Assembly (NCBI GenBank): GCA_032718475.1
Contig: JAUCBJ010007676.1
Location: forward strand, 1-54,975
Source: Nemertoderma westbladi
Taxonomy: Eukaryota > Animalia > Xenacoelomorpha
Length of the DNA: 54,975 nt
Reading direction: 5' to 3'
The position numbers and the translations under genes are program-made. Positions 4,298-7,250 of this stretch are shown piece after piece. A model generated the notes under the pieces. That model was not told the origin of the DNA. It made no database searches and saw only the letters and a list, made by a program, of their open reading frames with translations. Positions within the stretch are counted from its first letter, which is position 1. Each line of letters starts with the position of its first letter.

Positions 4298-4336
4298 TCA
4301 ATGTTGGCTAAATAAATGAATACGAGTCCATGTTCT
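4298..4336 (+). repeat. Left arm of a 39-bp inverted repeat (partner 7310-7348)
   Basis: TCAATGTTGGCTAAATAAATGAATACGAGTCCATGTTCT matches the reverse complement of 7310-7348 at 38/39 positions. Confidence 0.9.
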
Positions 4337-7119
4337 ATGACACCATCACAGACCCCGAGACTCTTGTTAAAATGTTAATTGGCAATCGGGCTAAGCAACT
4401 AAAACATGTCCCAAAGGCATCCAGAGCTAATCTCGCCAGCCTCTTATCCGATCTGTTCATGGCCATAGTCGCAGACCCGTCATTGGTTGATAGTTGGTTT
4501 AAGCTTCTGATCGCAGGTCACCGCTGTATAGCGGCTCCTAAGCGAGGAGGAAGGCGACAACAACTGTCCCTAGCCTCACAAGTGAACAAGAACATCGCCG
4601 CATTCCGCACTTGTTCCCCCTTCATCATGCCTCCTCCAGAAATGAATACCACATCGGCACGACATCAGAATAATCGGGATGAGATCCGCCTTGCCACTGC
4701 AGTCGCGGAGAAGATAGAAGACGGCGATGTCAGAGGTGCTATCAGACTCGCATCATCGACAGACTCTATGGCACCGAACACTCCCGAGACGCTGCAGGCC
4801 CTGAAAGCTAAGCACCCTCCTCGCCCAGCAGACAGACGCGACCCCCCTCCCCCAGTGCAGCCAAGTGCAACACCTTGTTCACCACAGGTACTACGCAAAC
4901 TGATCACCACATTTCCGAGTGGTAGCGCAGGTGGGCCGGATGGTATCCGACCCCAGATCATCAAAGATCTCATAAGGGCCGAAAATGGAGAGGCAGCATC
5001 CCGACTTCTTAACTCCATGTGCAAGTTCGTCGACCTTGTTGTTGCCGGTAAGATCCCAGACTGTATCGGACCACTCTTCTTTGGAGCAAACCTCTTCGCA
5101 TTTGTGAAGAGTGTAGGAATCCGGCCAATTGCTGTTGGTATGACATGGCGACGACTGTGCTCAAAATACTTCGGCTCACTCATGAAGGAAGAGAGGTCAG
5201 CCTCATATGGTTCCACTCAGCTCGGCATCGGGACCAAGAACGGAGCCGAAGCAGCAGCACACGCAGCGCGTTCGTATGTCTCAGCAGATAATAACGGCTG
5301 CTCGGTTTTACTGAAAGTCGATTTCAGTAATGCCTTTAACACGCTCCGTAGAGACTCTCTCCTAGAGACAATCCATCAGCGCTATCCGATGATTTACAAT
5401 TATACCCGGGCAGCCTATAGTGATTATAGTTTCCTAATACACAGAGACAAGGTGATCCTCTCCGAAGAAGGTCCGCAACAGGGAGACCCCGAAGGTCCTG
5501 CATTGTTTGGAGATGTCACGAACGATCTCAACCACTCGCTGAAATCTAAATTTAACGTCTGGTATCTCGATGATGGAAACTTCGCAGACAAATATGAGAT
5601 CGTGCTACAGGATCTCCAGACAGTTATCGAGGAAGGACGGAAGTGCGGGTTAACTTTAAACTCTAAGAAATGCGAGTTATTTTTTCTGGGAGAAACACCC
5701 GAAGAGGAGCGCCATCGCATCCACAAAGAGTTCAACAGCATCTGCGAGGGAATCTTAGTACCCGACCTCGCCAACCTCACGATGCTGGGCGCGCCGATAG
5801 GGAAATTTGCAATGGTGAAATGTCTTGAGGCAAAGGTATCTGATCTGGAGACCATGAGTAGCCGGTTATCATCGCTCGATAGTCACCACGCGTTTTTCCT
5901 CCTGAAGAATTCCTTCGCCATACCCCGCCTTCTGTACTTCTTGCGCTCCGCCCCATGCTTTGAATTCCCGGCGATTCTAGAGCGATACGACCAACTCCAA
6001 CGATCCTCCCTCCAAGACATCGCCAACTCGCAAATCGACGACAAGGCATGGAAGCAGGCTTCACTTCCTGCCCGATTGGGAGGCCTTGGGATGAGCTCTG
6101 CCAAGCAGCTCGCACCGACTGCCTATTTGGCTTCAGCGGCTGCTTGCAGACCTCTCACGAATCTCCTTTTCACTCCAGAAGTTTACTCAGTACGAGATAT
6201 CCCGGGAGCCCTTCACCCCCAACCCATCGCAAATGACATCACCTCTCGCGGTGCACTAGAACTGTGGCAGTCCTACACCACCACTGACATCATCGCACCA
6301 ACCGATTCCAAACAGAGTTCATGGATGGCTCCAATCCATGAGTTCAACCGTGGTTGCCTCCACGAATCCGCTGTCGGTAATGATCTGGCCCGGCTAAATG
6401 CTTTAGACGACCCAATCCCTGGCTGTTGGATCGACGCGATCCCAGTATCATCATTAGGCCTGAAACTAACAGATGCCCAGCTCCGTATTTCAATAGCAAC
6501 CCGCCTGGGATGTAAAGTAACGGAGCCCCACAACTGTTTCCGGTGCGGTAAACCCGTTAAATCTGACGGTCTCCATGGTCTCTCGTGCAGTAAGAGCGCA
6601 GGTCGACAAGCACGCCACAGCATGTTGAACGATATCGTAAAGCGATCACTAAACAGCTGCGGCGTGCCATCCCTGCGTGAACCGCCAGGTCTCTGTTTGA
6701 GCGATGGGAAGCGGGTAGATGGTGTAACATTAGTTCCTTGGAGCCAGGGAAGAACACTTACCTGGGATGCCACAGTAGTCGACCCGCTGGCCCCCAGCCA
6801 TCTCAGAATAAGCCAAACCATTGGTGGTCGCATAGCCGAGGATCAGGAGAACGTAAAGATTAGGAAGTATCAGGAGTTAATTGATCGGGGCTATCAGTTC
6901 GAACCAGTTGCCTTTGAGACATTTGGCCGCCCCGGTCCGAGAACAGCCGCTTTCCTCAAAGAAGTCGGGATGAGGCTCCATGCCAACACGCATGAGCCCC
7001 GTTCTCATCGCTTCTTACTACAGCGTATCCTGATAGCTATCCTGATCGGAAACACCGCTTCGATATTGGGAACCAGCGAATCATTAACTGAAGGACTCTA
7101 CGATATTTTAGAGGTGTAG
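4330..7119 (+). CDS. Non-LTR retrotransposon protein: reverse transcriptase + zinc motif + restriction-like endonuclease (CRE-like clade), probably 5'-truncated
   Basis: 929-aa uninterrupted ORF. RT motifs [43 protein letters not shown]-x2-C...HGLSC...RH zinc motif; RVDG...WDATV.D...E..K..KY RLE motif. No N-terminal zinc finger, and the ATG lies inside the flanking inverted repeat. Confidence 0.93.
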
Positions 7120-7120
7120 T

Positions 7121-7250
7121 GAAGCATCTGAGGCTTATCTCGTTGGATTGTTTGAGGACACGAATCTGTGCACTATCCACGCCAATCGAGTTACCATAAT
7201 GCCGAAGGATATCCAAACTGGCCCGTAGGATCAGAGGCAAGAGGACGTAA
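7121..7250 (+). pseudogene. H3: Histone H3 C-terminal fragment (residues 94-135 + stop), decayed
   Basis: Translates [32 protein letters not shown][+1 nt][10 protein letters not shown], versus canonical [42 protein letters not shown]: 4 substitutions and one 1-nt insertion. Confidence 0.95.

Follow-up and report, generated by a model that had tools for sequence, protein, structure and literature searches.

Host sequence is moved by read-through RNA in L1 3′ transduction and in the splice-mediated exon trapping of SVA elements, where splicing sets the boundary of the moved piece, and twin priming leaves a 5′ inversion with a short duplication. The capture of nxf2 sequence by TART-A was first mistaken for an insertion into the gene (PMC7785250). 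The Drosophila telomeric captures, which include pieces of aub and piwi, are 140-235 bp long, and the capture families have a higher copy number, according to a further study, whose main text does not contain the word histone (PMC13534243). Among elements with a restriction-like endonuclease (RLE), the CRE clade is characterized by a single ORF with reverse transcriptase (RT) and RLE and by a zinc finger, according to two papers (PMC12278014, PMC7650587). The targets named in the Utopia paper are rRNA, spliced-leader, tRNA, transposon, microsatellite and telomere sequences, and the word histone does not occur in it (PMC4640811). No non-LTR element that carries or targets histone H3 was found in the literature searched, which lay outside Repbase, Dfam, subscription papers and supplements.

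The window analysed here, a stretch of 54,975 nucleotides of Nemertoderma westbladi DNA (contig JAUCBJ010007676.1), holds a 5′-truncated copy of an RT-RLE element followed by codons 94-135 and the 3′ UTR of an H3 gene. This composite has probably arisen by splicing of element RNA onto the last exon of the host's H3.3 gene and was then likely retrotransposed many times. We regard it as a case of host-gene capture in which the splice signature is unusually clear, and the TART capture is its closest known counterpart, since in both a host-gene fragment, here of about 220 bp, lies in the UTR of a non-LTR element and is common to its copies. Unlike TART, the element is of the RLE type, the donor is a histone gene and the insertions are not telomeric as far as seen; moreover, the captured piece begins at an exon boundary and takes the place of the element's own 3′ UTR. 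In contrast to L1 and SVA, the splice donor would come from the element and the last exon from the host, and the resulting form is the major one of the family, not a one-off.

The window was compared with contigs of four of the six public runs listed under the same species label (X1-X4), which come from three samples of three studies, X1 and X2 being one sample. The ORF and the frameshift region were compared in X1-X4 and the 3′ region with the junction in X1, X3 and X4; cover in X4 is missing over most of the ORF, which was not counted as absence. Contig depth does not give copy number and served only for comparing single contigs within one run.

The element is a stop-to-stop open frame of 935 codons on the plus strand (4312-7119), which contains RT and RLE in a single ORF, as RLE-encoding non-LTR retrotransposons do. 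The RT core (aa 270-458, nt 5119-5685) is matched by Pfam RVT_1 (E 3e-14) and carries QQGDP at nt 5476 and YLDD at nt 5563. Towards the C-terminus (nt 6535-6870) follow a CCHC knuckle (aa 742-759) and the PD-(D/E)xK-like endonuclease motifs RH..N, EP..KR.DG, WD.T and K..KY (aa 768-853), with V before the catalytic D where most relatives show P. A profile built from the window protein and 19 relatives found R2 proteins as its best matches in PDB (E 7.7e-17), with an alignment that also spans the CCHC/RLE region; the window protein alone had no phmmer match there. R2 and Utopia share this RT-CCHC-RLE layout, with distant sequences. The single RT/RLE ORF is also that of CRE1, CRE2, SLACS, CZAR and animal CRE-like elements, and the element may be CRE-like; no named CRE protein was returned among the matches. 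Trypanosomatid members of this clade insert in spliced-leader genes, whereas the flanks of the window element are unrelated repeats, and no spliced-leader family is among the three weak Rfam matches in 2500-9000.

The frame is not complete at its 5′ end. Upstream of 4340 an X1 contig carries 141 nt and an X3 contig 987 nt that differ from the window, and the relative P0131 (60% identical) has about 60 extra N-terminal residues including a zinc-finger-like motif, the alignment beginning at its residue 79. Therefore, the ORF of the window copy (4340-7119, plus strand) is 5′-truncated at 4340. The N-terminal zinc finger, which full-length relatives have, is absent from it, and the Met at 4330 sits within junction DNA.

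The stop codon TAG (7117-7119) is followed by a single T (7120) and then, from 7121, by codon E94 of H3 in the same orientation, so that the junction between the last element base and the first base of the E94 codon is observed directly at 7120/7121. The H3 piece (7121-7250, plus strand), which would represent the coding sequence of the last exon of H3.3, is matched by Pfam Histone (E 7e-13), and 30 of 32 residues agree with H3 94-125 in PDB. Near 7215 one base is added; behind it the H3 frame stays open until the stop codon at 7248-7250 and differs from the usual C-terminus by two further substitutions, which makes four in all. The H3-derived stretch does not end there, as matching 3′ UTR of the source gene, which travels with the element, extends over 7251-7341 (plus strand; X4 contigs 7240-7301 and 7273-7336, X1 contig 7155-7302). 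It has no histone stem-loop, judged from the lack of an Rfam histone hit and of a stem-loop pattern and from a fold z of +1.86. From 7342 on the window is covered by the main X1 and X3 contigs, which have before this base other letters that are not present in the window. Since these contigs arrive at 7342 from elsewhere, 7342-7780 is a separate multicopy repeat outside the element, and the end of the carried piece lies near 7341.

The sequence-only reading had described the passage from TAG over one nucleotide into E94 and on to the H3 stop, which the Pfam and PDB matches bear out, and was right in its count of four substitutions and one indel. It had also noted that the 5′ half of H3 is absent upstream, and tblastn found no other H3 piece anywhere in the window. 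The ORF that it took for intact is the truncated one described above, and in its span of 4330-7250 the junction and the stop stand, but the start lies in junction DNA and the end falls short of about 7341.

The alternative of a one-off junction is refuted by the recurrence of the junction in the other runs, which is observed just as directly. The junction is bridged by an X1 contig (7055-7181, depth 1368), an X3 contig (7085-7153, depth 664) and an X4 contig (6910-7185, depth 49), and in X1 the next contig (7155-7302, depth 1219) follows without a gap. By contig depth, about nine in ten element ends in X1 and X3 bear H3 at this same nucleotide, which agrees with the expectation that most copies would do so and resembles the presence of a host-gene fragment on most copies in TART-like captures. 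The identical H3 lesion expected of a carried tail was seen as well: wherever contigs of X1, X2 or X3 cover 7215 they have the +1 base, which is missing from an X4 contig at depth 20018. The lesion is therefore a property of the element family, and the frame is intact in the deep H3 of X4. Neither the host's own in-frame H3.3 gene nor its intron was seen in the X1-X3 contigs, from which the gene was possibly filtered.

The depth of single contigs, a proxy only, climbs along the ORF from 5′ to 3′ in X1 (303, 373, 398, 421, 648-916, 1368) and towards the 3′ end in X3 (272, 279, 338, 450, 703) and X2 (181, 220, 241, 345). Three 5′ truncation points lie behind unrelated letters, at 4340 in the window, at 6910 in X4 and at 7183, inside H3, in X3. 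Together with the gradient, they show copies truncated to a variable extent at the 5′ end. The shared lesion, the 5′ flanks without H3 and the copy truncated within the H3 piece indicate that the H3 piece travels with the element.

The start of the piece at E94 coincides with an exon start, a point that the sequence-only reading missed together with the H3.3-like source. We take H3.3 genes to be interrupted by an intron at the Q93/E94 boundary; this position was not documented in the papers found by the literature search. A query with the 42-residue C-terminus of H3 returned 2496 proteins of 23-74 aa, mostly without a taxon, of which the best 120 were read, a sample that admits breaks upstream of E94 and in which downstream breaks, scoring lower, are not represented. 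The motif is present in 118 of these 120 short H3 gene calls; in 105 of the 118 the H3 likeness reaches no more than two residues upstream of E94, and in the other 13 it reaches 4-22 residues. All but two of the 105 (103/105) end in Q, and 59% of the six residues preceding in E94-start calls are F, L, S, P or C, which is the pattern of a pyrimidine tract and a CAG acceptor read in frame. Judged from these gene calls, E94 is a widespread exon start in other genomes.

Two X4 contigs link codons that read AAIGALQ, residues of the H3.3 type, straight to 7121, and contigs of this run match the window over 7240-7336 at depths of 605-872 and above. The source of the captured piece thus looks like H3.3, by the AAIG-type residues 87-90 in X4 and the 3′ UTR without a stem-loop. 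In X4, H3 is covered about 400-fold more deeply than the element 3′ end, whereas X1 and X3 show similar depths for both; because of this pattern, X4 (labelled 'DNA?') is read as RNA-like and its join as spliced. Should X4 be DNA, an intron at 93/94 would be missing from the source gene and the splicing model would fail. All 76 H3 loci fetched (70 genome_contigs, 6 viral_contigs) are continuous across 93/94, which counts against the intron, although nearly all are of the canonical type and none is an intron-containing H3.3 gene.

A second form of the element end was observed. One contig each in X1 and X3 follows the window to 7121 and then continues with the same 12 other letters, free of H3. 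In X1 this form has a depth of 130.9 against 1368, i.e., 8.7% of the ends, a value obtained by arithmetic on the bin 7106-7137 (1433.5 = 1368 + 130.9 over 16/32 bases). In X3 it is likely the contig of depth 54.9 against 664 (7.6%), assigned through the common variant T7084C. From 7121 the H3-free form begins with GTAGGT, which agrees with the 5′ splice donor consensus at five of six positions; this donor call rests on 12 letters, and the exon-side bases AGT match the consensus poorly. We infer that the H3-free form is the parent of the H3-tailed element.

Read together, the two forms and the exon boundary make the following course the most likely. An H3-free copy would have lain in sense orientation within or upstream of the last intron of an H3.3 gene, and read-through RNA would have been spliced from GTAGGT, one base past the stop codon, to the acceptor before E94. 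Splicing would thereby have removed the element's own 3′ UTR and supplied the poly(A) end of H3.3. A stop codon one base from an exon junction would escape nonsense-mediated decay. Judged by contig depth, most 3′ ends are now of the joined form, which has the common frameshift that a master copy would have acquired before it spread. Target-primed reverse transcription into unrelated sites would have left the 5′-truncated copies, and twin priming may have inverted the window copy.

The sequence-only reading proposed as its headline that the element cuts H3, which would mean an active family whose RLE nicks H3 genes at Q93/E94 and in which every copy has been newly inserted into an H3 gene. Target specificity for multicopy genes is the rule among RLE elements (PMC4640811), and in R2 and Utopia, too, the same 3′ flank follows at the same base in most copies, as H3 does at the large majority of ends here. 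However, R2 and Utopia copies have the target gene on both sides, and here the 5′ half of H3 is lacking and the lesion is shared. The expected H3 codons 1-93 upstream of some copies were not found, as none of the three 5′ flanks seen (window 4340, X4 6910, X3 7183) is H3, with 18 of 51 loose ends viewed, so that an H3 flank in a DNA run was possibly missed. The 3′ flank is not an intact target either, given the added base in all X1-X3 cover and its absence from the deep X4 H3 contig, one copy is truncated within the H3 piece itself, and the DNA past the UTR is an unrelated repeat. A metagenome scan with the window protein alone found no relative; a scan by alignment gave relatives, of which the best 80 of 497 were examined (29-46% identical). 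H3 occurs in 0/80 of these loci (best tblastn E 0.40), which have ordinary short UTRs; in 23 of the 56 in which the stop could be placed, (TAA)3+ lies within 300 nt, at a median of 80 nt. No RT was found near H3 within the fetched flank of the 76 H3 loci (37 distinct contexts), and no RT-H3 fusion among 243 H3-hit and 179 RT-hit proteins; one lepidopteran relative occurs on many different contigs. As these samples hold no close kin, they speak only against an H3 link throughout the family. Within the data examined, targeting of H3 genes finds no support, and we consider it very improbable. The caveat of the same reading, a permanently carried H3-derived tail, fits a junction that recurs at one and the same nucleotide in three samples and has a common lesion; its overall interpretation is thus partly supported, for the carried tail but not for targeting.

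A carried tail could also have been gained without splicing, by a DNA insertion at the exon start or by a switch of the RT from H3.3 mRNA to element RNA, with 3′ transduction afterwards. Such a capture would explain the shared junction, the shared frameshift and the depth gradient equally well, and the two parents share one base (G7121). A one-base microhomology is little, however, and a break that falls exactly both on the exon start and on the GT donor-like site of the H3-free form would be a coincidence, so that we hold this origin to be unlikely. Somewhat less likely still is the multiplication of a single chance junction as DNA, by segmental duplication or as a satellite unit, without further retrotransposition. 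Depths over 7342-7780 and over the ORF are comparable in magnitude and the copies differ little, as DNA amplification would have it, but the shared unit ends at the ends of the element, with other letters before 4340 and before 7342. Against it also stand the 3′-ward climb in depth with its varying truncation points and the inverted copy of the tail end at the 5′ junction of the window copy.

That inverted copy (4298-4336, minus strand) repeats 7310-7348 at 38 of 39 positions, and over 49 nt the identity is 90%. Its first 32 bases are identical and end at the start of the flank (7342), and the next 17 match at 12, a partial match as expected for a target end annealed to internal RNA. On the twin-priming reading, a candidate for the true 3′ end lies on the minus strand at 4132-4297, where AATAAA (4197) is followed by a tail of the (TAA)n type (4179-4132), the sole period-3 array among 51 tandem-repeat rows. 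The (TAA)3+ near the stop in 23 of the 56 relatives favours this assignment, which is uncertain. Mean depth is only 5-24 at 4136-4302, which counts against twin priming, and the low depth, also stated for 4188-4302, fits it only if the main contig was filtered. Contigs resembling human DNA had been dropped, which could hide a tail-bearing contig, and the low depth was not taken as proof of absence. A target-site duplication was sought at the window insertion and not found. On balance, inversion of the window copy by twin priming is slightly favoured, and either way the H3 UTR is handled as part of the window insertion. A DNA transposon bounded by terminal inverted repeats at 4298-7348 was also considered and rejected, because the main contigs lack the left arm.

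A uniform host-gene flank at the 3′ end of a retrotransposon can be cargo rather than target. If the tail was acquired by splicing, then parent, product and exon boundary are visible in one species, and the locus is a natural case of 3′ UTR acquisition in which the element would have remained mobile with a single base of its own 3′ UTR. This bears on the template choice of RLE proteins, which is relevant to R2-type gene-insertion tools. It also raises the question of whether an exon of an essential gene shields an element from small-RNA silencing beyond Drosophila telomeres. It is a tentative thought, and one we would not expect to hold, that the 3′-end formation of the H3.3 exon and the cost of silencing an essential gene might favour the H3-tailed form, at about 10:1 over the parent. 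In the event of such a benefit, the element protein would start reverse transcription without its native 3′ UTR.

Among the relatives, a short inverted repeat before an A-run and (TAA)n was seen by eye in several loci (L024, L026, L031, L033, L037, L046, L047, L052, L053, L056, L059 and L075) and looks like a conserved 3′ hairpin of the element group. Records with bacterial or archaeal titles (L081-L150) contain eukaryotic H3 genes, some contigs bearing several, and two relatives of the element protein are named alphaproteobacterial (P0152, P0153); both are likely host contamination.

Further features of the window were recorded. Upstream of the insertion, 2841-3960 is a very high-depth repeat (single X1 contigs at 6,500-7,000) without a tRNA or Rfam match, and directly behind the 3′ flank repeat lies a 32-bp minisatellite of about 19.5 copies (7782-8412). 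A signal-peptide-like short first exon with a good donor (8697-8756, plus strand) and an ORF with a fibrinogen C-terminal domain (11858-12466, plus strand; Pfam E 7.6e-40) probably belong to one fibrinogen-related gene that starts about 1.3 kb past the insertion. An ORF with an HDNR domain (13105-13605, minus strand; Pfam PF15115, E 1.6e-10) lies on the strand opposite to the fibrinogen-domain exon. Two remnants of BEL/Pao-type LTR elements (21119-29115 and 45790-51123, plus strand) contain DUF1759, Peptidase_A17, an integrase zinc finger and DUF5641, with stops and frameshifts. An AT-rich 57-bp tandem array occupies 35012-37221 (about 39 copies, 96% matches). A 21-bp array of about 202 copies (40986-45216) has a GC skew near -0.75 and open frames of >1400 codons on both strands, and a short copy of it lies at 53052-53107.
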